Of a DNA stretch of 64,000 bases, positions 12,194-28,983 are shown one piece after another. The position numbers and the translations under genes are program-made. The DNA is from Pseudomonadota bacterium. Lineage in GTDB: Bacteria > Pseudomonadota > Gammaproteobacteria > Steroidobacterales > SZUA-146. The notes under the pieces are model-generated. The model had not been told where the DNA came from, made no database searches, and was given only the letters and a program-made list of their open reading frames with translations. Every line of letters begins with the position of its first letter. Position 1 is the first letter of the stretch. The stretch lies in contig JBCCHD010000004.1 in the NCBI GenBank assembly GCA_039028935.1, forward strand, positions 49,043 to 113,042, read 5' to 3'.

Positions 12194-12249
12194 GTTGCCG
12201 CTCCCATTAATCCATGCCATTCGCTCGTACATGGTATTCTCTTCGTTCT

Positions 12250-14106
12250 ATGGATGCACTGCCCACGCTCACTACCGAAATCTTGCTTGTTATGGGACTC
12301 GTGGTCTTTGCCGTCATCCTGTTCAGCAAGGAGTTGCTGCGTGTCGACGTGACAGCCGTGCTTGTCATGACATTACTCGGGCTCATTGTCTATGTCCCCG
12401 GGTTCGACGGACTGCTCGACAAAGATGTGCTGTTTTCAGGCTTGTCCAGTAACGCCGTGGTGTCGATCATCGCGGTAATGATACTGGGCGGTGGCCTCGA
12501 CAAAACAGGGGTTATGGAGCGCGTAGCCTGGGCGATTATGCGCTTCGGCAGTCAAACCGAATCGCGAATTGTGACGCTCGTATCCGGCACCGTCGCGATG
12601 ATTTCGGCGTTTATGCAAAACATTGGTGCAACTGCGCTGTTTTTGCCCGTCGTCGCGCGCATATCGTCCCGCACCGGACTCCCCATGTCGCGCCTTGTGA
12701 TGCCCATGGGGTTTTGTGCCATTTTGGGCGGCACGATTACGATGATTGCCTCAAGCCCGCTGATCATGCTCAATGACCTGCTCGACAACGCCAACAACAC
12801 GTTGCCCGCCTCGAAACAAATGGAGCACTTCGGCCTGTTCGCCGTGGCACCGGTGGGCTTATCTTTAGTGGCCGCCGGTCTTCTCTATTTTGTGTTTTTC
12901 GGACGTTACGTTTTGCCGCGCGGCGAACGCAAAGTGGGCGCACGTGGGGCCGGCACCATTCGCTATCTGCGACGTCTGCATGGTGTCGACGCCGCGGTGC
13001 GCGAAGTCGAAGTGCCTATCGACAGTCCGCTGGTCGGGCATGACATCAAAAGCGCTCAGCGCGAGTTTGAAGTGCGCATTGTCGCCTCGCGCTATGCCGG
13101 CAAAGTACTCGTCGCGCCACCGGTCGAAGCGCCCATTGCAGCGCCAGCGACTCTGGCTGTCATTGCTCAGGCGGATGAACTGAAACATTTCATCACGGCC
13201 AATGGCCTGCGAATCCGTCCAAAACTCGTCGAGTTTCGGCATCTGCTCGCGCGATCGATCGCCGGCGTCGCCGAAATCATCATACCGCCAGACTCCACGC
13301 TCATCGGGCGGAGCGTGCGCGACATCCGCCTTCGTATGTCCTATGGTCTGAGCATGCTGTCGATCTATCGCAGCGACCACAGCATCACACACAAACTGCA
13401 GGACATTCCCTTGCAGGCGGGCGACACGCTGCTGTGCCACACGCGGTGGGACAACCTGGCGCGACTCGAAGCCGATCGCGACTTGGTCATCGTCACCACC
13501 GACTACCCGCGCGAGGAACGCTTGCCGTATAAACTGTGGTTGGCCCTAGGCTTTTTTGCCTTAGCACTGGGCCTGGTGCTCTTTACCAACGTCATGCTCC
13601 CGGTCGCGCTGCTCACCGGTGCAGTGGGCATGATCGTCACCGGCGTGCTCACCATGGACGAGGCCTATACCGCGGTGAGTTGGAAAACGGTCTTCCTCTT
13701 AGCAGGTTTGCTGCCGCTAGGCCATGCGGTCGAGTCGTCGGGCGCCGCCAACTACATCGCGCTCCATGCGTTGGCGCTGTTTGACGGCGTGCCGGCCTGG
13801 GTTCTGCAACTCATGCTGGCCGTCATTGCGGCGGCGTTCACGCTGGTCATGTCCAACATCGGCGCCACGGTCATTCTGGTGCCGATTGCCATCAATATCG
13901 CCCTGGCCACCGGCGCCGACCCAGCCATGTTCGCTTTGACCGTAGCGATCTCAACGTCCAACTCATTTTTGATTCCGACTCATCAAGTCAACGCATTGGT
14001 GATGGGGCCTGGCGATTATCGTGTCAGCGATTTTATCCGCGCGGGCAGCGTGATGACCGTTGTGTTTATTGTGGTCTCGCTCGTCGTGCTCAATCTCATT
14101 TTCTAA
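12250..14106 (+). CDS. SLC13/DASS-type permease with two internal TrkA-C (RCK-C) domains
   Basis: About 618 aa with hydrophobic N- and C-terminal halves. A central soluble segment of about 200 aa has two repeated RCK-C-like units (VEVPIDSPLVGHDI..., EIIIPPDSTLIGRSVRDI...). I chose the ATG at 12250. Confidence 0.75.
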   Translation: MDALPTLTTEILLVMGLVVFAVILFSKELLRVDVTAVLVMTLLGLIVYVPGFDGLLDKDVLFSGLSSNAVVSIIAVMILGGGLDKTGVMERVAWAIMRFGSQTESRIVTLVSGTVAMISAFMQNIGATALFLPVVARISSRTGLPMSRLVMPMGFCAILGGTITMIASSPLIMLNDLLDNANNTLPASKQMEHFGLFAVAPVGLSLVAAGLLYFVFFGRYVLPRGERKVGARGAGTIRYLRRLHGVDAAVREVEVPIDSPLVGHDIKSAQREFEVRIVASRYAGKVLVAPPVEAPIAAPATLAVIAQADELKHFITANGLRIRPKLVEFRHLLARSIAGVAEIIIPPDSTLIGRSVRDIRLRMSYGLSMLSIYRSDHSITHKLQDIPLQAGDTLLCHTRWDNLARLEADRDLVIVTTDYPREERLPYKLWLALGFFALALGLVLFTNVMLPVALLTGAVGMIVTGVLTMDEAYTAVSWKTVFLLAGLLPLGHAVESSGAANYIALHALALFDGVPAWVLQLMLAVIAAAFTLVMSNIGATVILVPIAINIALATGADPAMFALTVAISTSNSFLIPTHQVNALVMGPGDYRVSDFIRAGSVMTVVFIVVSLVVLNLIF

Positions 14107-14350
14107 GCCACTTTAATGAAGGACTCCACACCCTGCGAACTCACGTTGCCGCGCGTCAGGCCCGAATTGACTCGAGACCAATCGCTCAGCCCCATTACCG
14201 CCGTGTGCGCGCCCGGTAGCGATGCCGTAATTCGGTGACTTTTTCTCGTCACGCTTTCTCCCGCCGTCGCCAGCCAGTACACTTTCTACCCAGCGAGCAT
14301 TGAAGACGCCGACAGCACATCCTCGGGCGTCAAGGGAAGGAGCGCAGAAC

Positions 14351-15370
14351 GTGGCAAAAAGTAATATTCACGACGTTGCCAAACGGGCGGGTGTCTCGAT
14401 TAAGACCGTATCCCGCGTGATCAATAATGAACCCAATGTGCGGGAAAACACGCGCGCCGCGGTGCAGCAGGCTGTCGACGAGCTCAACTATCGACCCAAG
14501 GCCTCCGCGCGTAGCCTAAAAGGCCGTCGCTCATACTTGGTGGGATTGCTCTATGACAACCCGAGCTCGAGCTACGTTGCCAACATTCAGCAGGGTGTTA
14601 TCGATGAAACGCGGCGTCGTGGCTACGACCTGGTTATCCATCCTTGTAGTTACTTAAACCCCGGACTGTGTGACGAAGTAGAAGAACTCGTACGTCACGC
14701 GGATGCGGACGGCCTTATTCTTACGCCGCCGTTGTCCGACGACATTACGCTCATGAACAAGCTCGACGAACTCAACACGGCGTATGTGCGTATTGCCGCC
14801 GTCACACCCAAACAAGGAACTCTGCGAGTCACCACCAACGATCGCGACGCGGTGGCCGATCTCACCCGGTATCTGGCGTCACTGGGTCATCAACGAATTG
14901 CGTTCATAATCGGCCACCCCGATCACAAGGCGGTCGCCAATCGCTATCTCGGTTATCAAGACGGCCTCACGTCATGTGGTATCGAGCTCGATGAATCGTT
15001 GATCATTCAAGGCAATAACAGTTTTGAGTCCGGCGAAGAGTGTGCGCGCAAACTGCTATTAAAAACTCAACGGCCAACGGCCATCATCGCCAGCAACGAC
15101 GATATGGCGACCGGCGTTTTACGCGTCTCTCACGAAATGAAGCTCAATCTTCCCGATGAACTCTCTGTCGCCGGTTTTGACGATATTCCCATGGCGAGTC
15201 AGGTGTGGCCGTCGCTTACAACGGTTAAACAACCGGTCAAACGCATGGGCGAGCGCGCGACAGCGCTGTTGCTTGATCAGCTTCACGGTCGCGCTACGGA
15301 TGTGCAGTCTGAGTCGATCGACTCGTATCTTGTGCTCAGAGAATCAACCGGTAGTGTCGGACCACGCTAA
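14351..15370 (+). CDS. LacI family transcriptional regulator
   Basis: N-terminal HTH NIHDVAKRAGVSIKTVSRVINNEPNVRENTR followed by a periplasmic-binding-protein-like sugar-binding fold. The GTG at 14351 is preceded by AAGGGAAGGAG. The ORF track starts 17 codons earlier. Confidence 0.85.
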   Translation: MAKSNIHDVAKRAGVSIKTVSRVINNEPNVRENTRAAVQQAVDELNYRPKASARSLKGRRSYLVGLLYDNPSSSYVANIQQGVIDETRRRGYDLVIHPCSYLNPGLCDEVEELVRHADADGLILTPPLSDDITLMNKLDELNTAYVRIAAVTPKQGTLRVTTNDRDAVADLTRYLASLGHQRIAFIIGHPDHKAVANRYLGYQDGLTSCGIELDESLIIQGNNSFESGEECARKLLLKTQRPTAIIASNDDMATGVLRVSHEMKLNLPDELSVAGFDDIPMASQVWPSLTTVKQPVKRMGERATALLLDQLHGRATDVQSESIDSYLVLRESTGSVGPR

Positions 15371-15394: not shown

Positions 15395-16411
15395 CTACTC
15401 AATGCGGCAGAAAGCCGCGCCGTACAGACCCGGGTCTTTAACGAGCACGAGTGAGACCGGTGTTTGTGCAACAAGGTCCGACATCGCGCCTGCGTTGAGA
15501 AATCGATTGACGAATCGTTCTTGCGAAAATAAGGGCTCAATCGAGCGCAGGATGTTGCCGCTGAGATAAAGACCACCACGAGCACAAAACGTGATGGCAA
15601 GGTTGGTACAGTAAGCCGCCAAAATGTGAAGATAGAGCTCGATGGTTTCTTCGCAATCGGCTTGGGCGCCCTCGCGAGCCTGTGACGTAATGGCTTCGGC
15701 GGTCATCGGCGAATACGGACGGCCATTCATTTGTGACAGCGCCTGATGGATCAGCGGGATTCCTGGCCCCGCGAGCAACATTTCCATCGACACGAAATCA
15801 TGGCGACGACTCAATACCTTGAGTAATTCACGCTCGCGGCGACTCGCCGGCGCAAAGCGCGCATGGCCACCTTCACTGTCGATGATATGCGGCTCGCCCT
15901 CCACTTCCGTCATCGCCGCCACACCCAATCCAGTACCCGCGCCAACCACCACCTTGCGGACGCCTGTTCGCACACCCTCATGCAAAACGCGTGTTTCATC
16001 CGCTGACAGCTGCGTAATGGCATGCGCAACGGCTGTGAAGTCGTTAACAATTTCGAGCTTTTTGAGGTTGAGCGTTTTTTGCAGCTCTTGCGCCGACAGC
16101 GTCCAGTTCAGATTGGTGAACTGCACGGTGCCATCGTCGACCGGTCCCGCCGCCGCAATACAAGCGCGATCGGGGAGATTGCGGCCCAGATAATTGCGAT
16201 AGGCGATAACCGTTTCAGCCGGACCGTCAAAATCGGCGCATTTGAATACTTTGATGTCGACCAGCGCGCCCCGCCCTGACTCTGGTGATTCGGCCACCAA
16301 AGCAAAACGGGCGTGCGTGCCGCCGATATCGGCAACAAAACGCGAATATTCGGGCGAGTATTCGCTGATCGGGCCTGCATGCAAGGGTGTCTGGGATGTG
16401 CGTTCGGTCAT
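15395..16411 (-). CDS. glk: Glucokinase
   Basis: Glk motifs: FVADIGGTHARFALV, LNWT, NDFTA, GAGTGLG. I chose the ATG at 16411 (MTERTSQ). Confidence 0.85.
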   Translation of the reverse strand: MTERTSQTPLHAGPISEYSPEYSRFVADIGGTHARFALVAESPESGRGALVDIKVFKCADFDGPAETVIAYRNYLGRNLPDRACIAAAGPVDDGTVQFTNLNWTLSAQELQKTLNLKKLEIVNDFTAVAHAITQLSADETRVLHEGVRTGVRKVVVGAGTGLGVAAMTEVEGEPHIIDSEGGHARFAPASRRERELLKVLSRRHDFVSMEMLLAGPGIPLIHQALSQMNGRPYSPMTAEAITSQAREGAQADCEETIELYLHILAAYCTNLAITFCARGGLYLSGNILRSIEPLFSQERFVNRFLNAGAMSDLVAQTPVSLVLVKDPGLYGAAFCRIE

Positions 16412-16549
16412 TCGATTCAATCCATCGTGCACTCGGTGACGAGCAAGTACACTCTTTGTTATGCCTGGCGCCCTTCTTTCGGAACGCCTCATTGTCACCG
16501 GGCTATCCACACTCTAAAACCCCGGAATACCGTCACGTTATAGCAGATG

Positions 16550-16563
16550 TGACATCGTTGTCA
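16550..16563. promoter_or_regulatory. LacI-family operator-like palindrome, site 1 (TGACATCGTTGTCA)
   Basis: 14-bp near-perfect palindrome with a central CG. It is one of four closely related copies in the window and lies in the glk / PEP-CTERM divergent intergenic region. Confidence 0.65.
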
Positions 16564-16705
16564 ATTTATCCTAGGCGTCGTTAATAATGGTCATAGCCGG
16601 AATAGCTGATACTTAAGTATCTGTTATTAATGAACTATCTAAAAAACCCTGACTATCGTTAAATCGCCCTTCCAGCCTCCCGGCAGCACTCTCAAATGAC
16701 ACTAT

Positions 16706-16719
16706 TGACAACGTTATCA
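16706..16719. promoter_or_regulatory. LacI-family operator-like palindrome, site 2 (TGACAACGTTATCA)
   Basis: It lies 156 bp from site 1. Both sites are followed by the same extension AATTT..CCTAGG. Confidence 0.65.
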
Positions 16720-16868: not shown

Positions 16869-17603
16869 ATGTTCAACAAGAGCAAGAAACTACTTGCCGC
16901 ACTCATCGTAAGCTTTGCGCTAGCACCGATGAGTCAGGCAGCGCTGTCGAGCTACAGCCAGGACTTTGAGAGCCTGGATGACACCGATGGCGGCGCGTTG
17001 GCTGGCGATGGCTGGCTGGTATTTGCCAACGTCTTCGATGCCGGCGGTGGCTATCTGTACGGCTACGGCCCCAACCCGGCACCCAATGGCGGTCCGGCTT
17101 TCTCGGCTGTTGCGGTCGGCCAAGGCGGTGCTGCACAAGGTAATCAGCAGATGGTGGTCTACAGTGACTACAATAATGGTGATCACGGCAATGGCAACTT
17201 GATTGAAGCCAATGTCTTCCAAGAGCAGATCATTGGTGCCGGCGACGTTGGCTCAACGTGGGAGTTTTCGTTTGACGCCCAGGTGAACGACCTGGCCGCA
17301 CCCACCACATCACTCGCGTTCATCAAGACGCTCGATCCGAACGCGGGCTTTGCGCTGAGCAGCTTCTTGATCATCGACACCACGAATGTCGCAGCTTGGA
17401 ACAGCTACACGATCTCGATTCTGATCAACAGCGGTCTACAAGGCCACATTCTGCAGTTCGGTTTTGCCAGCACGGCAACCAACTTCAACGCATCCGGCGT
17501 GTTCTACGACAACGTGAACTTCAGCCAGGTGCCTGTGCCAGCTGCTGTGTGGCTGTTCGGTTCCGCGCTGCTGGGCTTGTTCGCTACGCGACGCCGCGCC
17601 TAA
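16869..17603 (+). CDS. PEP-CTERM sorting-domain protein with beta-sandwich (carbohydrate-binding-module-like) body
   Basis: Signal peptide (KKLLAALIVSFALAPMSQA). C-terminal PEP-CTERM anchor VPVPAAVWLFGSALLGLFATRRRA. RBS AGAGGGGAGAG lies upstream, and codon usage is biased toward T/C-ending codons. Confidence 0.85.
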   Translation: MFNKSKKLLAALIVSFALAPMSQAALSSYSQDFESLDDTDGGALAGDGWLVFANVFDAGGGYLYGYGPNPAPNGGPAFSAVAVGQGGAAQGNQQMVVYSDYNNGDHGNGNLIEANVFQEQIIGAGDVGSTWEFSFDAQVNDLAAPTTSLAFIKTLDPNAGFALSSFLIIDTTNVAAWNSYTISILINSGLQGHILQFGFASTATNFNASGVFYDNVNFSQVPVPAAVWLFGSALLGLFATRRRA

Positions 17604-17688: not shown

Positions 17689-17859
17689 GTACATCACACA
17701 GTGTGAACCCAGTCGCGCGGGATCACACCGATCATCGAGCGACTTCAGACGTAAAGGATTGTGGCGCGAACCGCAAAATCATGTCCATTCGGTATATGAT
17801 GCTCTCCACCAACCGGGCGCGCGGTGCGCCCACTCAACGTCATTACCGGGGGGAACGTT

Positions 17860-18678
17860 ATGAACTGGGAAGAGTGGTTACCGAAGATTCAGCAGTATGG
17901 CATCGAGTATGGCGTATTGGCACTCAAAGCACTTGCTATATTTATCGTCGGCCGAATCGCGGCCGGCATTATTCGCAAAGTCGCCGATCGCCTCATGAAG
18001 CGCGGCGGTATGGACGACATGTTGCGCAAGTTTATTCGCAATATTTTGTACGCCATCATCATGACGTTTGTCATTATCGCCGCAATCAGTGCGCTCGGCA
18101 TCCAAACAGCGTCTTTGGTGGCCGTGATCGGTGCCGCTGGCTTGGCTGTTGGCTTAGCGCTCCAGGGTTCATTGGCCAATTTCGCGGCGGGCGTGTTAAT
18201 GATTATCTTCCGGCCGTACAAGCTTGGTGACTTGGTCAACGTGGCCAGCACCGAAGGGTTTGTCGAAGAGGTGGATGTGTTTACCACGGTGTTACGTACG
18301 CCGGACAAAACGAAAATCATCATTCCCAACGGCCAAATCATGTCGGAGCAAATCATCAACTACACTGAGTCCGAACTGCGACGCATGGAATTGGTCGTCG
18401 GTATTGGCTACAGCGATGACATTGAGAAAGCCCGCGAAGCGATCATCGCGGCGATCAAGGACGATCAGTACGTCGTTAAAGACCCAGAGCCCAAGGTGAG
18501 CGTGGCCGAACTTGGCGACAGCTCGGTCAATCTTGCGGTACGTCCGTGGGTGCGCTCGGCCGAATACGCGCCAGCCTCGCATCACCTCAATGAAGTGGTG
18601 AAGAAGGCATTGGATGCGGCGGGCGTGAACATTCCGTTCCCGCAACGTGACGTGCACGTGTTTAATCACAACAGTTAG
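17860..18678 (+). CDS. mscS: Small-conductance mechanosensitive channel (MscS family)
   Basis: Three N-terminal TM helices. The pore helix GAAGLAVGLALQGSLANFAAGVLMIIFRPYKLGD is the conserved MscS TM3 signature. I chose the ATG at 17860. Confidence 0.8.
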   Translation: MNWEEWLPKIQQYGIEYGVLALKALAIFIVGRIAAGIIRKVADRLMKRGGMDDMLRKFIRNILYAIIMTFVIIAAISALGIQTASLVAVIGAAGLAVGLALQGSLANFAAGVLMIIFRPYKLGDLVNVASTEGFVEEVDVFTTVLRTPDKTKIIIPNGQIMSEQIINYTESELRRMELVVGIGYSDDIEKAREAIIAAIKDDQYVVKDPEPKVSVAELGDSSVNLAVRPWVRSAEYAPASHHLNEVVKKALDAAGVNIPFPQRDVHVFNHNS

Positions 18679-18731: not shown

Positions 18732-19172
18732 ATGGCCGTCCAGTTTATGAGGGCCTGCGCCCTGTTTACCAAAACATTCTGCTCCCGCAATACGAGAAGC
18801 CGTCGGGTGAGTGCCCGATCATCGACCAGGCTCAATAATTGGATCTCCCAGCCTTCGATACTCAACCAATGTTCGAGCCACGCGGTCGATTCGCTCGCTC
18901 GATAAATTACTCGACACCGTTCACCAACCCGCGCCAACGGGCCTTTCGGCGCGTATCGATAGCGCGTCGACATCGATGGCCAACCCGACCCGAATCGCGC
19001 GCATTTTGACTTGGAATGGCCCCTCGATCGCTCATGGCTGCCCTAGGTCGTTAGAAAATAACCATTTTATTCAGTTAGTTAGAAATATCAGGATATTTTT
19101 GATTTTTGTGTGGTGCAGCATTTTTGGCGTACATGCTCTAGACTCGGACCTCCGCTAACTAGGAGATCCGGC

Positions 19173-19901
19173 ATGCCGAACTCTGCCGCCACACGCGAAG
19201 CCGAATATGGACTCAGACCACCACCGCGCCTGTATCAGTATGGCGAGGCCCGCGCCCCTTTTGAGGCCTTAACGTTGTTTCCAGCCGCACCTTGGTTGCT
19301 GACGATGCCGGGCGGTGACGGCCGCGAAGTGATGTTTGTTCCGGGTTTCTTAGCCAGCGACGCATCCACCTGGGCGCTTCGCAACTATCTCGACTACTTG
19401 GGTTACACCACACTGCCTTGGTCGCAGGGTCGCAACAAAGGACAACCCGAAGAAGACGCCCGCCGGTTACTCGATCATATTGAATCAGTTCGCCGCCCCG
19501 ATGAGCCGATTACGTTGGTGGGTTGGAGTTTAGGCGGTGTGATTGCACGCGAAGTCGCGCGTCTTGCACCCGACTCGGTGCGCGAGGTCATTACCTACGG
19601 AACACCCATTGAAGGCGGACCGAAGTACACCTCAACCGCAGAACTGTATGAGGGCCGACGCAACCTGGATCTCGACGCACTTGAAGACTATATCCACAGC
19701 GTCAACAGTCACGGCATCAGTCAGCCGCTCACTGTGATCTACAGCAAATCAGATGGCATCGTCGGGTGGCGGGCGGCCATAGATCGCTACAATCCCCAAG
19801 CACGCCACGTGCGGGTCGCAGGCTCACATATCGGCATGGGCACCAATCCGCTGGTTTGGCGCGCGATCGCCAAAGCGTTGCATCGATCCGGTAACCGCTA
19901 A
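19173..19901 (+). CDS. Alpha/beta hydrolase (lipase/esterase-like)
   Basis: Nucleophile elbow GWSLGG. The ATG at 19173 is preceded by AGGAG. Confidence 0.7.
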   Translation: MPNSAATREAEYGLRPPPRLYQYGEARAPFEALTLFPAAPWLLTMPGGDGREVMFVPGFLASDASTWALRNYLDYLGYTTLPWSQGRNKGQPEEDARRLLDHIESVRRPDEPITLVGWSLGGVIAREVARLAPDSVREVITYGTPIEGGPKYTSTAELYEGRRNLDLDALEDYIHSVNSHGISQPLTVIYSKSDGIVGWRAAIDRYNPQARHVRVAGSHIGMGTNPLVWRAIAKALHRSGNR

Positions 19902-19931: not shown

Positions 19932-21659
19932 CTATTGACCGGCTGCGGGTCCGGGTGGATTGAAGAAGTACCCCTGCATGATCACCAGATCAAAAAAGTT
20001 CACCGCGCCGTCACCATTAAAGTCCGCATCCTCACTGTCGCCGAGGAACACGCCGCTGAACAACGACAAATCAAGAAAGTTGACGATGTTATCGTTGTTC
20101 AAATCCGGATCACAGTCATTGCCAAAACCGTCACCATCCGTGTCGCGCTGACTGACATTGGCCACAGCCGTGCAGTTGTCGACGCTGTCGAGCACACCGT
20201 CCTCATCGGTATCGGCGGCGGACGAGAACTTCCAAAGATCCGTTGAGAAATTAATATTCGAACCGGTTGTATTGAAGGTCATGACCACACCCGTGAGCGG
20301 GCCATTAGTCGCCACATACGGGTCAAAACTGCCGTTACCACCCCAGTGATAACTGTTGTCATCGAACAGCTGATCGAGTTCGATCACCACTTCCTGCCAG
20401 CCACCGCCAGCAACGGCGCAGGGCCCGGTCGGACTCACGACGCAGTTAAACTGAAACTCGTCGTCCGCCCCATCGGGCGGGTTCATGACGGTTTGGTCGT
20501 TGTCGTCGTCATCCAGAAAATTGAGTTCGATCGTGTAAGACTGATTCGCGAGCGGATCAATCCAGAAACTGAAGCGACTCATACCCGACAAATCGAGCGG
20601 CATGTTGCGGCCAATGCCCCCGGCGAAACCGGATGAGCCACCAGTGCCATAGCCTACTTGGATCGCGAATTCGCCACCGACAATCGGTGGCACGTTTGAA
20701 CTCGAGGCATTCAATCCACCTCCGCCAACCGAGCCATTGAAACTGAACCAATCATTACCAAATGGATCGCCGTGTTCCAGATCGTCAAAGACCAAATCCG
20801 GTGAGGTAGGCACTTCGGCAGGCAGCTCATACACGCGCACGTAGTCGATCACGTATTCCATCGGAAACACCGTGCTGCCATCAGGCGGGCCCGGCAAATT
20901 CCCGCCCACCGCCAGATTCAGCAACATATGAAAGTCGACATCAAACGGCGCTGGGAAATTGCCGTTGGTTGTATACCACGCATTTTGCGTTGCATAGAGC
21001 ACATCGTCGATGTACCAACGCATTTCTCCGGCCTGCCACTCCACCGCGTAGGTGTGAAAGTCGGTGGCCGTTCCTGCCGGCAAATTAGTGGCGTTACCGG
21101 TAAACACGTTTTCGGGAAACATACCGCCGTAGTGAATCGTGCCAAACACGCGATCGGGTTGATCGCCGGTTTGTTCCATGATGTCGATTTCACCGCTGGC
21201 CGCCCAAGTGCCGTAGGCATTCGCGGATGGCAACATCCAAAACGCTGGCCACATGCCCTGCCCAGTCGGCAACTTGGCACGCATTTCAATCCGGCCGTAC
21301 GTAAAATCGCCTTTGTTCAACGAACGAATGCGAGTCGATGTGTAGTTATAGCCCGCGAAGCCGTCGTTTTTGGCGGTGATCGTCAGCACGCCATCGGCCA
21401 CCGTGTCGTTAACACTGGTGTAGTACTGCAGCTCGTTATTGCCCCACCCGGGAATACCGTAGAGTTGGCCATTTCCGATCATGTAGCTCCACTTCGTTTG
21501 ATCGAGTTCGGTGCCATCAAATTCATCCGCCCACACCAACGGGCAGTCGGGATCGAATGCGCAGTTTGCCTGAGCGCTGCCGGTCATCACCGCCAGAAGG
21601 ACAAGACACAACGTCTGTACGAGTGGTTGCCCGAAGGGCGGCAAGGTCGAGTGTTTCAT
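19932..21659 (-). CDS. Secreted GH16 beta-glucanase (laminarinase-type) with central accessory domain and C-terminal thrombospondin-type-3 / dockerin-like module
   Basis: Signal peptide. GH16 catalytic motif GEIDIMEQ (ExDxxE) with WPAFWMLP upstream. C-terminal DTDEDGVLDSVDNC, DTDGDGFGNDCD, NIVNFLDL and NGDGAVNFFDL. Confidence 0.85.
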   Translation of the reverse strand: MKHSTLPPFGQPLVQTLCLVLLAVMTGSAQANCAFDPDCPLVWADEFDGTELDQTKWSYMIGNGQLYGIPGWGNNELQYYTSVNDTVADGVLTITAKNDGFAGYNYTSTRIRSLNKGDFTYGRIEMRAKLPTGQGMWPAFWMLPSANAYGTWAASGEIDIMEQTGDQPDRVFGTIHYGGMFPENVFTGNATNLPAGTATDFHTYAVEWQAGEMRWYIDDVLYATQNAWYTTNGNFPAPFDVDFHMLLNLAVGGNLPGPPDGSTVFPMEYVIDYVRVYELPAEVPTSPDLVFDDLEHGDPFGNDWFSFNGSVGGGGLNASSSNVPPIVGGEFAIQVGYGTGGSSGFAGGIGRNMPLDLSGMSRFSFWIDPLANQSYTIELNFLDDDDNDQTVMNPPDGADDEFQFNCVVSPTGPCAVAGGGWQEVVIELDQLFDDNSYHWGGNGSFDPYVATNGPLTGVVMTFNTTGSNINFSTDLWKFSSAADTDEDGVLDSVDNCTAVANVSQRDTDGDGFGNDCDPDLNNDNIVNFLDLSLFSGVFLGDSEDADFNGDGAVNFFDLVIMQGYFFNPPGPAAGQ

Positions 21660-21968
21660 AGGACATTACTTCCGAATTAGAGGGGTTCGCGGACCCCTGA
21701 ACCTGATCGCGTACCGATATTGCGGCATTTATCCCGATATCGTTGTTTTTATTGGCTATTTGCACTTGCCCTGCGGTGAGCGACCGCTTGGATAGAGCTT
21801 AGCTTAGTTTTCCTTATCGTATCTTAACTTTTTGTTTTACAAAGCTTGTTTCGACATAAATGGCGCGCAACCAGCGACGTCGACATTTCAATGCGCGTCC
21901 TCCGGACACCCTGGGCGGCCGCTTAATCCGAGCCGACAGAGTATGTCGCGGCGCCAGTGAAGCCGCAG

Positions 21969-21982
21969 TGACAACGTTGTCG
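21969..21982. promoter_or_regulatory. LacI-family operator-like palindrome, site 3 (TGACAACGTTGTCG)
   Basis: Same motif as sites 1 and 2, in the GH16 / DUF885 divergent intergenic region. Confidence 0.6.
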
Positions 21983-22137
21983 GCTGAGGCCCTACGGCGG
22001 TCAAGTTTCACCGGCTGCACTGTAATCAATAAATAAAACATATGCTTATGTTTTGACATGGCCGTCGGTCATCGGCTGTGGCAAGCATTCGACCCATCGA
22101 CCTTCTGCTGGCCCGTTTACCTCACACTAACCATAGG

Positions 22138-22151
22138 TGACAACGTTGTCA
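22138..22151. promoter_or_regulatory. LacI-family operator-like palindrome, site 4 (TGACAACGTTGTCA, perfect)
   Basis: Perfect 14-bp palindrome, 169 bp from site 3 and about 250 bp upstream of the DUF885 gene. Confidence 0.7.
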
Positions 22152-22397
22152 ATCTAATGCCCGTAAAGGGCGAGCCGGGTCTGGCGCACGGTACTTTCGC
22201 GTAACGATGCGTGTCGATGGTGTTTACTAAACGCACACACTAATCCATGCGCCGCCGACCCGACTGGTCGGTGCGTGAACATCCCCAGCCCGCTTGATCG
22301 CCCGTCTCTGTGCTTAGCGCAACCCTTTGAGGCGGTGGTGCGTCATACTCATAAAATGCCCTTCTGCATTTCATCTATTTGTTTTTGAGGTACTACT

Positions 22398-24143
22398 ATG
22401 CGCACGATTCATCGCACCCGGCTGCTCTTTATTGCATTTTGTGGTTTCGCCCTTAACGCCATGGCATCCGACAACTGGGTCGAGACAAGCAATGCCAATG
22501 CGCAAATTGTTCTGAAAGCCATGGCCAAATACAGTCCCGAGGGAGCCGGTAGTCTCGGCGTGGATGGTCTCGACGAAGACATCAGTGTCTGGGACAAGGG
22601 GATTTACAAACGCTCTTTGGCCGACTTTGATGAAACGCTCAAAGCACTGAACAAAAAGCTCGATGACGAAACTCACCCGACCGTGCGTCAGGATCTTCAG
22701 ATTCTCATCAAAGCGATTGAAGACAGCCTGACGTCGACCAAACTCGATCGCGACAACATGCTGCCCTATTACAATGTATCGAGCACGGTCTTTAGTGGTA
22801 TTCGCGGCCTTATCGATCCGCAGATCCCTGCGGAACGCTACCCCGCTGCCATCGTGCGACTCAAGAAATACGCCGGCATTGAACGCGGCTATACGCCCAT
22901 TGTGGAGCACGCCATAGCACGCACCAAAGAACGCTTCAAAGTCAAAGGTCTGGTTGGCCCCTACAAGGGCGAAGTCGAACAAGACCTGGAACGCAGCGCG
23001 ACGTTTATCACCGGTATCAAAGAATTATTTGAGGGCACAGAGCTCACCGGCTGGGAAGAGGCTTACGAAACATTGGCCAAACAGCTCAACGACTATAACG
23101 ATTGGGTACGCGCCGAAATGCTCCCTCGCGCTCGCGAGGATTACCGCCTACCGAATGTTATGTATCGCGACGCGTTGAAAAATTGGGGCGTGGACGCGGA
23201 TCCAGAAGAGCTCATTAAGCGAGCCACAGCCGGCTATATGGACATCCGCAATGAAATGGAGGCGCTTGCGCCACTGGTTGCGCAAGAAAAAGGCTATGAA
23301 ACAAAAGATTATCGTGAGGTGATCCGACTTCTAAAAGAAGACCGCGTCACGGGTGACGCATTGCTGCCGTTCTATCGAGATGTCTTGGGCGAACTTGAAG
23401 ACATCATTCGTGCTGAGCGGCTCGTGAGCCTTCCGGAGCGCGAGGCCGGTATTCGCATCGCGACGGCGGCGGAAACAGCGCGACAGCCGGCCGCTCACCT
23501 GGATGTGCCACGACTGATCGGCAATACCGGTGAATACCCAACATTTGTTATTCCATTGCTAGAGCAAAACGAGGACGGTACCTGGCCCGAATCGGACGAT
23601 ACATACAAAGCCGGGGCATGGACACTCACCGCGCACGAGGCTCGACCGGGTCACGAACTGCAGTTTTCGAGCATGATCGAAGGCGGCGTGTCGATTACTC
23701 GGGGCGTCTTTGCGTTCAATAGTGCGAATGTCGAAGGTTGGGCGCTGTATGCCGAAGCCATCGCGAAACCCTATATGCCGCTCGATGCGCAAATGATCTC
23801 TCTACAGTACCGCTTAGCCCGCGCGGCGCGAATGTACCTCGATCCGATGTTGAACTTAGGTCGAATCACACCCGAGGAAGCCAAACGTATCCTCAAAGAG
23901 GATGTGGTGCTAGGCGAAACCTGGGCCCAGAACGAGATCGAACGCTACACCTATCGTATTCCAGGTCAGGCGACCGCGTACTATTACGGGTACCTCAATC
24001 TGCAAGCACTTCGAACTCAAACAGAAATCGCCATGGGCGAGGCGTTCGACGCTCAAGCTTTCCACGACTTTATTCTCGCGCAAGGACTGTTGCCGCCAGA
24101 CATCCTTGCGCAGGCCATTAGAGAGAAGTTTGTGCAAATGTAA
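22398..24143 (+). CDS. DUF885-family protein (putative secreted metallopeptidase-like)
   Basis: 581 aa with a signal peptide. The motif TAHEARPGHELQ resembles the HExxPGHxxQ signature I associate with DUF885. The family name is from memory. Confidence 0.65.
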   Translation: MRTIHRTRLLFIAFCGFALNAMASDNWVETSNANAQIVLKAMAKYSPEGAGSLGVDGLDEDISVWDKGIYKRSLADFDETLKALNKKLDDETHPTVRQDLQILIKAIEDSLTSTKLDRDNMLPYYNVSSTVFSGIRGLIDPQIPAERYPAAIVRLKKYAGIERGYTPIVEHAIARTKERFKVKGLVGPYKGEVEQDLERSATFITGIKELFEGTELTGWEEAYETLAKQLNDYNDWVRAEMLPRAREDYRLPNVMYRDALKNWGVDADPEELIKRATAGYMDIRNEMEALAPLVAQEKGYETKDYREVIRLLKEDRVTGDALLPFYRDVLGELEDIIRAERLVSLPEREAGIRIATAAETARQPAAHLDVPRLIGNTGEYPTFVIPLLEQNEDGTWPESDDTYKAGAWTLTAHEARPGHELQFSSMIEGGVSITRGVFAFNSANVEGWALYAEAIAKPYMPLDAQMISLQYRLARAARMYLDPMLNLGRITPEEAKRILKEDVVLGETWAQNEIERYTYRIPGQATAYYYGYLNLQALRTQTEIAMGEAFDAQAFHDFILAQGLLPPDILAQAIREKFVQM

Positions 24144-24690: not shown

Positions 24691-25860
24691 CTAGCGCCCA
24701 AACACGATACGTTCCGCGGCGGTCGCCTCGATCGTTGGCCAGTCGAGAACCAGACCGATGCCAGGCGTCGTCGGTGCGTGAACCGAACCATCCGGTTCGA
24801 GTGGAAACCGCGAACACCCCGCTAAATCGAAATCATGACGCGGCACGGGTACCTCAAAAAACGTGGAATTGTTCTGACCCAACGCCAAATGGAGATTCGC
24901 CGCCGTCGAAAACGATCCACCCCACGATTGCAATTCCACGTTCAAGCCGGCCTTTTTGGCCAAATTGAAAATGCCGAGCGCGGGCGTAATGCCGCCCGCG
25001 GTCGCCGCATCAATCCGTAACGCGCTCCAACACTGCGCGTCGATGGCCTGAGCCAGATGCGCCTGATCAACCACGCTATTACCGGCCGGTAAGATCGGCG
25101 TATCGACTTGTGCCTGTAGGCGCCGATACGCCGCCCAGTCATGATCATTAAACGGCGCTTCGAGCCAAAGAAATTCGGCATCAGACGCGACCTTCGCAAC
25201 CGCCAGCGCCGCGTCTTCGCTATACAACTCTTCCGCATCGAACATAAACTGACAGTCACTGTGTGCAAAGGCTGCTGTTACGGCCTCAATTAGCGCGATG
25301 TCGGACTCCGCCGTTGATTTGTAATGAAATTTAAACCGGCCAAAACCTTGGGACTGTAAACTCGATATGAGCTCGATGTACTGTTTTGGCGTATCCATAA
25401 CCGGCACGCTCGCATAGCAGGGAAGCTGATCGCGTGCATTACCCAGCAAGGTATAAAGCGGCTTGCCACATCGCCTTGCCAGTAGATCCCACAGCGCGAT
25501 ATCCACCACGGCCAGCGCGGGATTAGACACTCCCGGCCTGCGCTGGCTCATCCACCGCCAATGGTCGTCCACCGACCGAGATTGGCTATTGAGAAGCCCA
25601 ACGATGAGCGGACGCAGGCTATGCGCGACCGACAAATCCGCTCCGAATTCGGTGAACGTGCAAACACTTCCACCGCCCACGAAACCGTCTTCATCCTCGA
25701 CCTTGACAATGGTATCCGTGTTCAACACCTCGGGCATGACGGGCGACCAGGCGTACTCTGGCGGGGATTGAACTACGACGTATACCGTCACACGAGTGAT
25801 GGCGGCAAGTGGGTTAGGCGCGTGGCTCGCTGAGAAACTCGTGTTCATTTTCAGATACAT
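24691..25860 (-). CDS. Enolase-superfamily enzyme (mandelate racemase / muconate lactonizing enzyme family)
   Basis: 389 aa with N-terminal capping domain plus TIM-barrel pattern (FKFHYK, FMFDAEE, LEAPF, acidic metal ligands). Substrate unknown. Confidence 0.7.
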   Translation of the reverse strand: MYLKMNTSFSASHAPNPLAAITRVTVYVVVQSPPEYAWSPVMPEVLNTDTIVKVEDEDGFVGGGSVCTFTEFGADLSVAHSLRPLIVGLLNSQSRSVDDHWRWMSQRRPGVSNPALAVVDIALWDLLARRCGKPLYTLLGNARDQLPCYASVPVMDTPKQYIELISSLQSQGFGRFKFHYKSTAESDIALIEAVTAAFAHSDCQFMFDAEELYSEDAALAVAKVASDAEFLWLEAPFNDHDWAAYRRLQAQVDTPILPAGNSVVDQAHLAQAIDAQCWSALRIDAATAGGITPALGIFNLAKKAGLNVELQSWGGSFSTAANLHLALGQNNSTFFEVPVPRHDFDLAGCSRFPLEPDGSVHAPTTPGIGLVLDWPTIEATAAERIVFGR

Positions 25861-25968: not shown

Positions 25969-28900
25969 CTAAAAGTCGTACTGAAAGCCAAAACGTATCT
26001 CATAACGTGAGGCATCGCCCACTCGGCTCTCAGGCGTACCAAGCTCAAGCGTGCGAGGGAAATTGTGCTGATACAGCACGCCCCAATCGTCATTCAGTAA
26101 GTTGGTCAGGTTATCAACCACCATAAACACACCCACTTCATGACCTTCACGGAACCCAGGAAAATCGACGTTCAGGCGCATATCGACCTTCCGCCACCAA
26201 GAACCGGTTTCAGTATTACGACCGTCTCCCGGACGCAAAACGTTGTCGCGGAAATCGAGGAACGGCGTGAAGCCAAACGGATCGATCGTGCCATTGAATG
26301 CATAGCTAAACGGACGACCGGAATTCGCGGCACCATAGAACGACAACGTGGCATCGTATTTATCCAAAAACGTACGACGATAGTTAGTCGTGAACGTGAA
26401 ACGATGTTTGATGTTGTAGTTGGAGGTGGATCGAATGTCTTCCTGTGGGTCAAAGAATGCGCGGTTCTGATAATTAGAAAACGCCACCGAACTCGTCATT
26501 GGGCTGACATCCTCTGCATCGCTGTAGGCATACCCGACGGTAAAATCGAAGCCATTTTCGAATGCTTTGGCTAGGCCAAGCGAGAAATTCAGCGAGCGGT
26601 TGCCCACATTACTGTTCGTCAGCACAAAGCTGGGCTCTCGAACCGAATCGTAAATCGGGTAGCCGTCCGGGTTGGTGCCGGTCTGCTCCAAATCACCACG
26701 TAAGACAATCGCCGAATCCTGACCGTCTGTGTACAGAAGATCGGCACTCAATACATAGTCCTGAGGAAGGATGTGCGTCACGCCCAGCGCGTATTTCCAC
26801 TCGGAGGGCAGATCAAAATCCGGGTCCAGGTAGTTAATCTCGAAGTTGTCGCCAACCCCCATTGCCACAGCATTGAACAGCTCAGAGGGCACGCCATAAC
26901 CGGGACCATTGGGTACGCCATCTTCGAGACCGAGGTAGACCACATCGGCATCAAACAGCGAACGCGAGCCATCGGTGTAACCGAATGAGCGGCCGCGCTG
27001 GCCGAACTGAAGCACGTTGTTGGCAGAATAATTGTTGGATAACCACACGTTCGGGTCGCCGCCTGAGTACAGGCCGATACCACCTCTGAACGTCGTGTTG
27101 TCACTGTACTCATAGGTAAAGCCAAATCGCGGCTGCAGCAAACCTTCGCCATCCACCGTGTTCGAATTGGAAAAACCGTAGTCGGCCAAAAACGTCGCGT
27201 TCTCGGCCGGTGCAACATCGGTGCCGTACCAGTCGTAACGAACACCCGCCACGATCGTTAGACGATCAGTCGCAAGAAACTCATCCTGAAAATACAGTGT
27301 GTTGAGCTCGTAGCCCCAATCGGCCGCTGCATCCAGCGGGTTGTTGGAGGGGGCGTTGTTGTAGTAAATCGCGTCGGCAAAGCCATTGCGGAAATTTTCA
27401 ATGCCATCGAAGCGAATTTCGGTTTCGGTGTGTTGCACAAAGAGGTTAAACACATCAAATTCTTCGCGTTCGTAGCCAAAGGTAAATTCGTGATCACCCC
27501 AGAGGTACTTGCCTTTTAGCGCAATCGTATCCACGTCATAGCTCAATTGATTGGACTGACGACTGTCATCCCCACCCAAGTACACGTCAACATCGTCGAG
27601 CTCTACGCGAATTTCACCGAAATCCGTACCGCCAACCGTGAGCTGACGGTTGTCCAGATCGACGCGAGCCAGTCGAATTTCCGTCGAGAAATTGGACGTC
27701 CAATCGGAATAGAGTGTCGCGGCGTAGGAATTGAGCTCGGCACCGCGCTCATACAGATGATTTTGAAATTCAAACTCATCCAGATCGCCGTCCGCCGTCG
27801 AGAAGTTTTCGCCATCGTTATAGTTGTAGGTGAACGCCACACGCTGACGATCGCTGATATTCCAATCCAGCTTAATTAGAAGCTTGTCATCTTCATGATC
27901 CAAACTATCTGGGATGCCGCCTGGATCGTACTGGTACAGCGTATTCGCGATCTGCACAATCTCATCGAGCTCTGCCTGGGTAACGGCCACTTCGTTCACC
28001 GCCCCCGAGCCAATCGGTCCGCGGTCAAATAGATTAGCGCCTTCGAGTTTTTCGTACGCCGCGAAGAAGAACAGACGATCCTTGATGATAGGTCCACCAA
28101 AGGTGATTCCGTATCGGGTTTCGGTGTAGTCCCCGGAAGTGATGCTATCGCCTTCGAGACTGTCCGCTCGCAAGCTGTCGCTCGTGTAGTCGACAAAGGT
28201 TGAGCCAAAAAACTCATTGCCGCCTGACTTGGTCACCGCATTGATGTTGCAGGCAGAGAAACCGCCGTATTCCACATCAAACGGTGCCAATTCCACGGCC
28301 ACTTGATTGATCGCGTCGTAGGAAAACGGAATGCGTTCGGTCGGATACCCGTTGGCATTAAGGCCAAACGAATCGTTGAGACGCACACCGTCAACGGTGA
28401 GACTGTTGAAACGAGGGTTTTTACCACCACACTGCACGGCATTGATGCCCCCACGCGATTCATCGACATAAATACGCGCATCCGCCCGAATAACGTCAGT
28501 GATATTTCGGTTGATCGCAGGCGCGAGCTCGAGCTCTTCGAGTCCAAACGTGGAACTCGGGCCGACCGCAATCTCACTGACGACCTGACGGGTGCCGACC
28601 ACCATGACTTCTTCAGTAAAACCGGAACTGGCGAGATCGAAATTGACAGCGGCGGTTTTACCGAGATTGAGCGAAACACCCTCAACGCGCTCGGAGCCAA
28701 AACCGTCGCTCGACACGCTAACACTGTAGTCGTAGCCGACCGGCAGGTTGCGAATCGCAAACTCACCGTTGACATCGGTGACAGCGGAACGGGTCAAACC
28801 CGACTGCTCGTTGCGAACGGTCACGACCGCGTTCGCAATCGCGTCACCGCTGTCCGAGGTGACTGTGCCGCGAACCGCAGAACTGGTGGTCTGAGCGTGT

Positions 28901-28983
28901 GATGAAAGCGGCAACGCCAGTAGCAATACCGCCAGTAACGCGGCAAAGCGACCAAGCCGCGAGCTGGATACAGGATTAATCAT
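25969..28983 (-). CDS. TonB-dependent receptor, Oar-like (N-terminal carboxypeptidase-regulatory-like domain)
   Basis: 1004 aa with a signal peptide. It has an Ig-like CarboxypepD_reg segment (VRGTVTSDSGDAIANAVVTVRNEQSGLTRSAVTDVNGEFAIRNLP). The TonB-box/plug start is EEVMVVGTR. The beta-barrel body ends in aromatic ...FGFQYDF. Confidence 0.9.
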   Translation of the reverse strand: MINPVSSSRLGRFAALLAVLLLALPLSSHAQTTSSAVRGTVTSDSGDAIANAVVTVRNEQSGLTRSAVTDVNGEFAIRNLPVGYDYSVSVSSDGFGSERVEGVSLNLGKTAAVNFDLASSGFTEEVMVVGTRQVVSEIAVGPSSTFGLEELELAPAINRNITDVIRADARIYVDESRGGINAVQCGGKNPRFNSLTVDGVRLNDSFGLNANGYPTERIPFSYDAINQVAVELAPFDVEYGGFSACNINAVTKSGGNEFFGSTFVDYTSDSLRADSLEGDSITSGDYTETRYGITFGGPIIKDRLFFFAAYEKLEGANLFDRGPIGSGAVNEVAVTQAELDEIVQIANTLYQYDPGGIPDSLDHEDDKLLIKLDWNISDRQRVAFTYNYNDGENFSTADGDLDEFEFQNHLYERGAELNSYAATLYSDWTSNFSTEIRLARVDLDNRQLTVGGTDFGEIRVELDDVDVYLGGDDSRQSNQLSYDVDTIALKGKYLWGDHEFTFGYEREEFDVFNLFVQHTETEIRFDGIENFRNGFADAIYYNNAPSNNPLDAAADWGYELNTLYFQDEFLATDRLTIVAGVRYDWYGTDVAPAENATFLADYGFSNSNTVDGEGLLQPRFGFTYEYSDNTTFRGGIGLYSGGDPNVWLSNNYSANNVLQFGQRGRSFGYTDGSRSLFDADVVYLGLEDGVPNGPGYGVPSELFNAVAMGVGDNFEINYLDPDFDLPSEWKYALGVTHILPQDYVLSADLLYTDGQDSAIVLRGDLEQTGTNPDGYPIYDSVREPSFVLTNSNVGNRSLNFSLGLAKAFENGFDFTVGYAYSDAEDVSPMTSSVAFSNYQNRAFFDPQEDIRSTSNYNIKHRFTFTTNYRRTFLDKYDATLSFYGAANSGRPFSYAFNGTIDPFGFTPFLDFRDNVLRPGDGRNTETGSWWRKVDMRLNVDFPGFREGHEVGVFMVVDNLTNLLNDDWGVLYQHNFPRTLELGTPESRVGDASRYEIRFGFQYDF

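Follow-up and report, generated by a model that had tools for sequence, protein, structure and literature searches.

Predicted GluR-like repressor sites between a GH16 laminarinase gene and a DUF885 gene probably control the laminarinase gene and not its neighbour

We hypothesize that a GluR-like repressor of the LacI family controls a secreted GH16 laminarinase, and not the divergently transcribed DUF885 gene, through two palindromic sites located in the spacer between the two genes, and we put the probability of this reading at roughly 60%. It comprises a primary operator (site 4) at a distal promoter, an untranslated leader of about 455 nt and an auxiliary operator (site 3). The analysis covered a 64,000-nucleotide stretch of DNA, referred to as the window, together with homologous loci from other genomes, designated L001, L002 and so on.

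The gene identities given in a preliminary description of the window, namely those of the LacI-family regulator, glk, the PEP-CTERM protein, the GH16 enzyme and the DUF885 protein, were confirmed. The regulator gene (14300-15370, plus strand; Pfam LacI HTH and Peripla_BP_3 domains), the true start of which is likely the GTG at 14351, is preceded by a CitMHS transporter gene (12214-14106; Pfam) and is convergent with the glucokinase gene glk (15395-16510, minus strand; Pfam), the true start of which is likely the ATG at 16411. Beyond glk lie the gene for a PEP-CTERM-anchored protein with a CBM-like beta-sandwich domain (16869-17603, plus strand), Pfam-assigned MscS (17824-18678) and alpha/beta hydrolase (19110-19901) genes, and the gene for the secreted, laminarinase-like GH16 endo-beta-1,3-glucanase (19932-21659, minus strand), which was assigned through Pfam, PDB matches and motif. 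On the other side of the spacer follow the DUF885 gene (22398-24143, plus strand; Pfam), the product of which has an HEARPGH motif and a signal peptide, and genes for an enolase-superfamily protein (24691-25860, minus strand; Pfam) and a TonB-dependent receptor (25969-28983, minus strand; Pfam). The GH16 catalytic domain matches laminarinases and endo-beta-1,3-glucanases in the PDB with E-values down to 4e-58, the protein carries the catalytic motif EIDIME, and its C-terminus is a TSP3/dockerin-like calcium-binding region. The PEP-CTERM protein, whose family counts 1438 or more members, has no Pfam domain over its main part. Its AlphaFold2 model (pLDDT 86) is a beta-sandwich, for which Foldseek returned CBM16, CBM4, CBM22, CBM61 and CBM11 as the best PDB neighbours, with target-normalised TM-scores of about 0.6 at 10-15% identity, so that the label "CBM-like" now has fold-level backing from a predicted structure. 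An Rfam scan of the whole window matched no family.

Both spacer sites are real and selected, and are not chance matches. Site 3 (21969-21982, TGACAACGTTGTCG) is the weaker copy, with its last base changed from A to G, and site 4 (22138-22151, TGACAACGTTGTCA) is a perfect 14-bp palindrome; re-reading of the window reproduced exactly the sequences and positions that had been described. They lie 169 bp apart, start to start, within a divergent spacer of 738 bp bounded by the GH16 start at 21659 (minus strand) and the DUF885 start at 22398 (plus strand), both starts being as the preliminary description had them, and its distances from the GH16 start hold as well: 310 bp for site 3 and 479 bp for site 4 (416 and 247 bp, respectively, from the DUF885 start). 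A first pair lies between glk and the PEP-CTERM gene. Site 1 (16550-16563), which is kept in L001, L012 and L002 when the loci are compared, overlaps the -35 hexamer and spacer of a promoter-like sequence facing glk, and site 2 (16706-16719) overlaps the same elements of one facing the PEP-CTERM gene. Exactly four matches with two or fewer mismatches occur in the window (at 16550, 16706, 21969 and 22138), against 0.32 expected, and none of 100 shuffles reached this number. A 20-position weight matrix, built from 98 sites adjoining homologous regulators in other genomes (a symmetric training set, with the central CG in 180 of 196 half-site counts), scored sites 1 to 4 at 21.8, 24.0, 16.9 and 23.2, respectively, the best non-site match in 64 kb being 9.0, within the coding region of the TonB-dependent receptor. 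Among 1000 surrogates from a first-order Markov model, the frequency of scores of 16.5 or more was 0.046 per 64 kb, as compared with four observed. Since only about 5e-4 sites of the score of site 3 are expected by chance in the GH16-DUF885 spacer, even the weaker site is not a chance match. Additional matches with three mismatches (14368, 28770, 38698 and 62362) were rejected: their matrix scores do not exceed 9.0, their total is near the chance level, and the two that were checked, 14368 and 28770, fall within coding regions.

The palindrome TGACAACGTTGTCA has the form described for operators of the LacI/GalR family, which are palindromes of even length (14-20 bp) centred on CG (PMC4052901). 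Its position in the spacer departs from that description, sites 3 and 4 lying outside the interval of 30-140 bp upstream of a start codon, in which more than 75% of LacI-family sites are found; about 7% are situated beyond 200 bp (PMC4052901).

Recurrence of the motif beside homologous regulators supports its assignment, as a predicted operator, to this regulator family. A scan with the regulator protein, restricted to one genome per species, returned 80 loci with identity falling from 81% to 41%, the nearest relatives being gammaproteobacterial MAGs. The palindrome, at two or fewer mismatches, was present in 73 of the 80 loci, with 140 sites in 1.4 Mb where about 7 would be expected from the rate of such matches in the window, and its proposed role as operator for the LacI-family regulator encoded next to it is thereby strengthened. 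The genes flanking these sites were the regulator itself (23), GH3 beta-glucosidases (13), GH16/PEP-CTERM-CBM-like genes (10), TonB-dependent receptors (at least 11), zwf (8, in Caulobacter), glk (6), SSF sodium:solute symporters (4) and several MFS sugar transporters. In the Caulobacter loci, zwf is preceded at 5-15 bp by the perfect palindrome TGACAACGTTGTCA, and the regulator gene, at about 50 bp, by a variant of it. With glk, GH16 and the CBM-like protein in the window, and GH3, TonB-dependent receptors, SSF, MFS and zwf in the related loci, the gene content is that of a GluR/BglR regulon, and a regulon for glucose/beta-glucan utilisation is the supported prediction. Of the targets usual for the family, no GH3, SSF or MFS homologue is present in the window itself, and the rest of the predicted beta-glucan pathway must lie elsewhere in the genome.

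Among the reference regulators, taken from the supplement of PMC4052901, the closest is GluR (CC2053), to which the regulator of the window is 46% identical over its full length (E = 1e-101; orthology is uncertain at this identity), with an identical recognition helix, GVSIKTVSRV. Identity is 38% to BglR2, 37% to BglR1 and 29-30% to BglR of Shewanella and Colwellia (Sfri_1314, CPS_3709).

Across genomes, the operator tracks GH16 and not DUF885. A metagenome scan with the DUF885 protein yielded 80 orthologue loci (64-81% identity; 645 kb fetched in total), and in 79 of these the fetched DNA held neither a site with two or fewer mismatches nor a matrix score of 12 or more. These 79 loci (64-71% identity) are without a GH16 neighbour and were picked regardless of whether the genome encodes the regulator; the sole orthologue locus with a site, L081, is also the sole one with a divergent GH16 neighbour. 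No operator is kept upstream of DUF885 orthologues irrespective of what adjoins them. On the GH16 side, an operator lies upstream of the GH16 gene, or of an operon of CBM-like and GH16 genes, in the window, L001, L002, L004, L005, L010, L013, L081, L161, L164 and L165; L163, which is cut off upstream, stands outside this tally. The membership of DUF885 in the regulon, which the preliminary description had put forward, is not supported by this distribution. The gene set that it had linked can be retained in part: glk, the PEP-CTERM family and GH16 recur beside such sites in other genomes, and DUF885 is probably to be taken out, as is the regulator gene, upstream of which the matrix scan found no operator in the window, in contrast to the 23 other loci where such a site is present.

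DUF885 orthologues possess a conserved upstream block of their own. Among 73 distinct upstream regions of these orthologues, the block GAATCCTTTT-N11-GCATCTAA was matched in 40 regions at no fewer than 14 of 18 positions, as compared with 0.5% of shuffles, with a fixed gap of 11 nt and mostly 45-95 bp before the ATG; the consensus of 36 instances is TGAATCCTTTT-N11-GCATCTAA. Presumably this resembles promoters of ECF sigma factors, with an "AAC"-type -35 and a "CGTC/CATC"-type -10 element. The window carries a diverged, promoter-like copy at 22319-22347 (plus strand; GCAACCCTTT-N11-GCGTCATA, 12 of 18 positions), and copies in L001 and L081 match at 14 of 18 positions in the same place and with the same spacing. 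Because the strict matrix derived from the distant DUF885 orthologues does not score the copy in the window, its identification there depends on position, spacing and likeness to the copies in L001 and L081. If the block is the DUF885 promoter, the centre of the operator is about 210 bp upstream of the DUF885 transcription start, and a LacI-type repressor would have no obvious simple action on DUF885 from about -210.

Keeping in mind that the sites lie in a spacer shared by both genes, control of GH16 and DUF885 together, with DUF885 a true member of the regulon in this lineage, is conceivable, and we regard it as unlikely. The adjacency of GH16 and DUF885 is kept in five genomes, and the distance from the operator to the DUF885 start is 150-250 bp in four of them (the window, L001, L081 and L161; about 630 bp in L002), which is steadier than the 400-555 bp to GH16, or to the PEP-CTERM gene in L002, and is therefore also compatible with a role at DUF885. 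Such control is difficult to reconcile with the 79 site-free orthologues, with the separate promoter-like block, and with the low score of the DUF885-facing promoter at the operator reported below. Further, nothing was found to tie DUF885 to glycans: only two PDB matches were obtained, both to uncharacterised lipoproteins, and a literature search for a function of DUF885 or a link to glycan use found none. It is most likely that DUF885 is a neighbour of the operator by accident of gene neighbourhood. A more speculative and quite improbable suggestion is that the architecture seen in five genomes, with a putative repressor-controlled promoter 400-555 nt ahead of the laminarinase gene or CBM-like operon and back to back with a DUF885 gene under an ECF-sigma-like promoter, is not mere spacer, so that either the leader would provide a second, post-transcriptional level of control or the repressor would couple the secreted DUF885 enzyme, which its HExxxxH-type motif marks as possibly a metallopeptidase, to the availability of beta-glucan. 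Should the latter be true, scavenging of glycan and of protein would be linked in marine sediment bacteria.

Returning to control of GH16, site 4 coincides with the best sigma-70-like promoter candidate of the spacer, and this candidate faces GH16. The predicted promoter (22124-22152, minus strand) consists of a -35 hexamer TTGACA (22152-22147), formed by the right half of site 4 and the A that follows it, a 17-bp spacer and a -10 hexamer TAGTGT (22129-22124), which would place the centre of site 4 at about -27. In a permissive sigma-70 weight-matrix scan, for which the hexamer frequency tables were drawn from general background, it obtained the top score in the whole spacer (12.2). This arrangement agrees with the preliminary description, which took the distant sites to imply a distal promoter or else a long 5' UTR. 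Sites 1 and 2 are placed in a similar manner, with their centres at about -27 of a glk-facing candidate (TTGACA-16-TATAAC, or -18-TAACGT) and about -28 of a PEP-CTERM-facing one (TTGACA-18-TAGGGT), respectively; site 3 anchors no promoter-like sequence on either strand. Strict promoter and terminator scans of both spacers found nothing; the strict promoter rule misses TATAAC because it requires T at the last -10 position.

The operator-anchored candidates were scored toward both genes. Facing GH16 and DUF885, respectively, the scores were 12.2 and -2.2 in the window, 13.6 and -2.8 in L001, 13.3 and 6.9 in L002, 10.4 and 7.6 in L081, and 10.3 and 1.5 in L161, and the candidate anchored at site 4 ranked first in the window, L001 and L002 and second in L081 (the L161 figure is an operator-anchored score alone). 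The -10 hexamers in the relatives (TACGAT in L001, TAATCT in L002, CAGGAT in L081 and CACGAT in L161) have diverged from one another and from that of the window, yet are still -10-like. Because TGTCA followed by A gives TTGACA automatically, only the -10 part and the strand asymmetry constitute independent evidence; once TTGACA is given, a total score of at least 10 has a probability of 0.06. When the operator-anchored promoter score was compared between strands at 58 sites of other loci with a target gene on one side only, the target-facing strand scored higher in 41 cases and lower in 17 (Wilcoxon p = 0.001).

From the promoter prediction follows an untranslated GH16 leader of about 455 nt (21660-22117, minus strand). 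The distance from operator to ATG is about 403 nt in L001, 458 nt in L081, 555 nt in L161 and 408 nt in L002 (in the latter, to the PEP-CTERM gene), implying a predicted leader of 400-555 nt across the five genomes, which is an unusual length. A small gene hidden in the spacer was considered and rejected, as tblastx among four spacers gave nothing below E = 0.07. The possibility that the region upstream of GH16 is a decayed PEP-CTERM/CBM-like gene, such as is present at this place in L002, was likewise rejected (best E = 2.6 in tblastn with four family members). Folding of the leader gave z = -1.35, indicating no unusual RNA structure. We note as counting against a model confined to GH16 the unusual length of the leader, its lack of conserved sequence or structure, and the empty strict promoter scan.

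Comparison of the spacers separates the two sites. Site 4 aligns with the sole site of L001 (at 17221) and of L081 (at 3442); L161, which is the genome of L012 (regulator identity 77%), has a single perfect site in the spacer; and in L002 the operon of CBM-like and GH16 genes is preceded by two sites at a spacing of 241 bp, one of them equivalent to site 4. Site 4 is thus present in five genomes, namely the window, L001, L002, L081 and L161. The operator and the DUF885 promoter block are all that blastn and tblastx find in common among the spacers, the surroundings having diverged beyond detection by blastn. For site 3 no counterpart was found in L001, L081 or L161, and this copy is specific to the genome of the window. 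The pair with its 169-bp spacing, presented in the preliminary description as a unit, cannot be upheld as one: L001, L081 and L161 possess the site 4 orthologue only.

That the spacer sites, or at least site 3, are non-functional, being chance matches or relics of rearrangement, is in our estimation extremely improbable, and is plausible for site 3 only, which is without a counterpart in the closest relatives, overlaps no promoter, and departs from the A that 186 of 196 training half-sites have at the position concerned. Against it stand the chance expectation given above for a site of this score and, for site 4, its preservation in five genomes despite the divergence of the spacer around it.

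A different role for site 3 is suggested by the lac system of E. coli, where O1 acts together with O2 at +401, and by the multi-operator control of gal through OE and OI. The likeness lies in a primary operator at the promoter, a second one within the transcribed region (predicted in the present case) and a spacing near whole helical turns; the locus differs in that no tetramerisation domain was found in its regulator and in that the second operator is not kept in relatives. On these grounds we consider it very unlikely that the two operators cooperate through a DNA loop of the lac or gal type, with the pair as the functional unit. Several spacings do approach whole turns (169 bp, or 16.1 turns, for sites 3 and 4; 156-157 bp, or 14.9, for the first pair; 241 bp, or 22.95, in L002), but that of L013 is 163 bp, or 15.5 turns, and two predicted promoters standing back to back account for the spacing of the first pair. 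A single site is present in three of the four relatives that have this spacer (L001, L081 and L161). Moreover, the regulator ends with its core domain, aligning to the dimeric PurR and CcpA up to the last residues, and Pfam and the alignment revealed no added segment at the C-terminus resembling the one by which LacI tetramerises. Neither a tetramerising repressor nor a conserved auxiliary operator, as Lac-type looping would have, is seen here.

Under the preferred reading of control at GH16, binding and repression, the effector, what site 3 does, and the promoter with its start of transcription are inferred to be as follows. A repressor dimer bound at site 4, the primary operator, and centred at about -27, would block RNA polymerase at the GH16 promoter, and sites 1 and 2, placed likewise on the promoters facing glk and the PEP-CTERM gene, would serve those genes. 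The GH16 transcript would begin at about 22117, with a leader of about 455 nt ahead of the start codon. Site 3, within this leader at about +141, may be an auxiliary operator, acting as a roadblock or in cooperation with site 4, and would represent a recent, lineage-specific addition. The operators would be freed of repressor by an effector, for which glucose or a beta-glucoside is the probable candidate, in line with the proposal for GluR/BglR; the laminarinase, the CBM-like surface protein and glucokinase would then be made together. For DUF885, transcription would proceed from a promoter of its own at a distance of about 200 bp, the gene merely sharing the spacer.

In kind, the proposed circuit is an ordinary one with a LacI-type repressor, such as has been published for GluR/BglR. 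GluR (CC2053), a LacI-family regulator of Caulobacter, was predicted by comparative genomics (Ravcheev et al. 2014, PMC4052901), with its gene downstream of zwf-pgl-edd-glk, autoregulation, a 20-bp palindrome and glucose as the proposed effector; its paralogues BglR1-3 were assigned to the use of beta-glucosides, and no GluR orthologues were reported in other Alphaproteobacteria (PMC4052901). The present system shares with GluR the palindrome core, the recognition helix, a glk target and a proposed glucose/beta-glucoside effector, and the sites that we see upstream of zwf and of the regulator gene in Caulobacter agree with the published ones (PMC4052901). It differs from GluR in its targets, which are here the GH16 laminarinase and the CBM-like surface protein as opposed to zwf-pgl-edd, pykA and ppdK, in the lack of an operator upstream of the regulator gene, where GluR is autoregulated, and in its host, which is a marine gammaproteobacterial-type MAG. 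The BglR regulon of Shewanella comprises LamA (an endo-beta-1,3-glucanase), beta-glucosidases, a TonB-dependent transporter of the outer membrane, a glucose permease and glucokinase (Rodionov et al. 2010, PMC2996990). BglR of Shewanella and other Alteromonadales governs a functionally equivalent regulon, but it belongs to another LacI subfamily with a different recognition helix, at the 29-30% identity noted above, and the window lacks its GH3, transporter or regulated TonB-dependent receptor. A literature search for the exact palindrome and for experimental work on GluR returned nothing relevant. The candidate beta-glucan regulon of the preliminary description is correct in substance and is not new in kind, the GluR/BglR group having already been predicted (PMC4052901).

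Laminarin is a major pool of marine carbon, and the switching of laminarinases is poorly documented in proteobacteria as compared with Bacteroidota. The comparison removes a misleading lead, namely DUF885 as a member of a sugar regulon, and offers the palindrome as a simple marker by which genes responsive to beta-glucan can be predicted from metagenome sequences. What remains of particular interest is the conserved long leader and the broad spread of GluR-like regulators over proteobacterial beta-glucan genes. Relatives of a GluR-like repressor, predictions of which had been confined to Caulobacter, occur with a nearly unaltered operator in many proteobacterial lineages, those with both regulator and operator including Steroidobacter, SAR86, Porticoccaceae, Gilvimarinus and sediment MAGs.

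The gene that faces the second site of the first operator pair, which in the window (16550-16719) lies between glk and the PEP-CTERM gene, varies among relatives. In the window this site faces the PEP-CTERM gene, and in loci L012 (12328-12485) and L002 (5343) it faces an SSF sodium:solute symporter gene. In L001 both sites are kept (12497-12654), yet the second stands without a sugar gene, MscS following 277 bp onward; a weak additional site (12926, score 12.5) was found there 18 bp ahead of MscS. Upstream of the regulator gene itself, an operator was absent in the window (14106-14351), L001, L012 and L002, and this clade seems to have lost autoregulation. Among more distant loci, 23 have a site just 5' of the regulator gene, Caulobacter gluR being one of them.

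The PEP-CTERM protein of the window (16869-17603) belongs to a large family of at least 1438 members, for which no Pfam domain was found, and its ~200-residue beta-sandwich is predicted to have a CBM-like fold. Members have exchanged their C-terminal anchors, which are of the PEP-CTERM, VPLPA-CTERM, TSP3/dockerin-like or FlgD-Ig type, and in several genomes a gene of this family heads the GH16 operon immediately behind the operator. Members were located in L002 (9975-10982), L004 (152-1138), L005 (7187-8167) and L164 (662-1618). A further large ORF of the window, at 1937-4021, has a TSP3/dockerin-like segment (3719-4000) at its end. It resembles the C-terminus of the GH16 enzyme, as well as those of the CBM-like proteins encoded in related loci, which suggests that several secreted proteins of the window organism share a calcium-binding or anchoring module.

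Five loci, of which two or more are labelled Pseudomonadales, encode a protein of ~1160 residues without a Pfam match beside operator sites: L020 (1614-5096), L053 (3839-7372), L056 (5536-9018), L070 (5990-9511) and L076 (5693-9217). This uncharacterised protein is a recurrent member of the regulator family's predicted regulon.

Upstream of DUF885 orthologues from many marine-sediment metagenome contigs (L082-L160), a promoter-like element, TGAATCCTTTT-N11-GCATCTAA, is strongly conserved 45-95 bp before the start codon, with at least 14 of 18 positions matched in 40 of 73 loci vs. 0.5% of shuffles. The window copy (22319-22347) has diverged, matching 12 of 18. The element resembles an ECF sigma-factor promoter, and on that reading DUF885 would belong to an envelope-stress-type regulon. 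The window DUF885 protein (22398-24143) has a signal-peptide-like N-terminus and contains the motif HEARPGH, which recalls zinc-peptidase sites. In the PDB it is related only to the structural-genomics 'lipoproteins' 3o0y and 3u24. In L002, the ~1.1 kb spacer between the PEP-CTERM-like gene and DUF885 is filled (11450-11900) with short direct repeats, with units such as GGACAGGCACAA and CCTCTGGAC.
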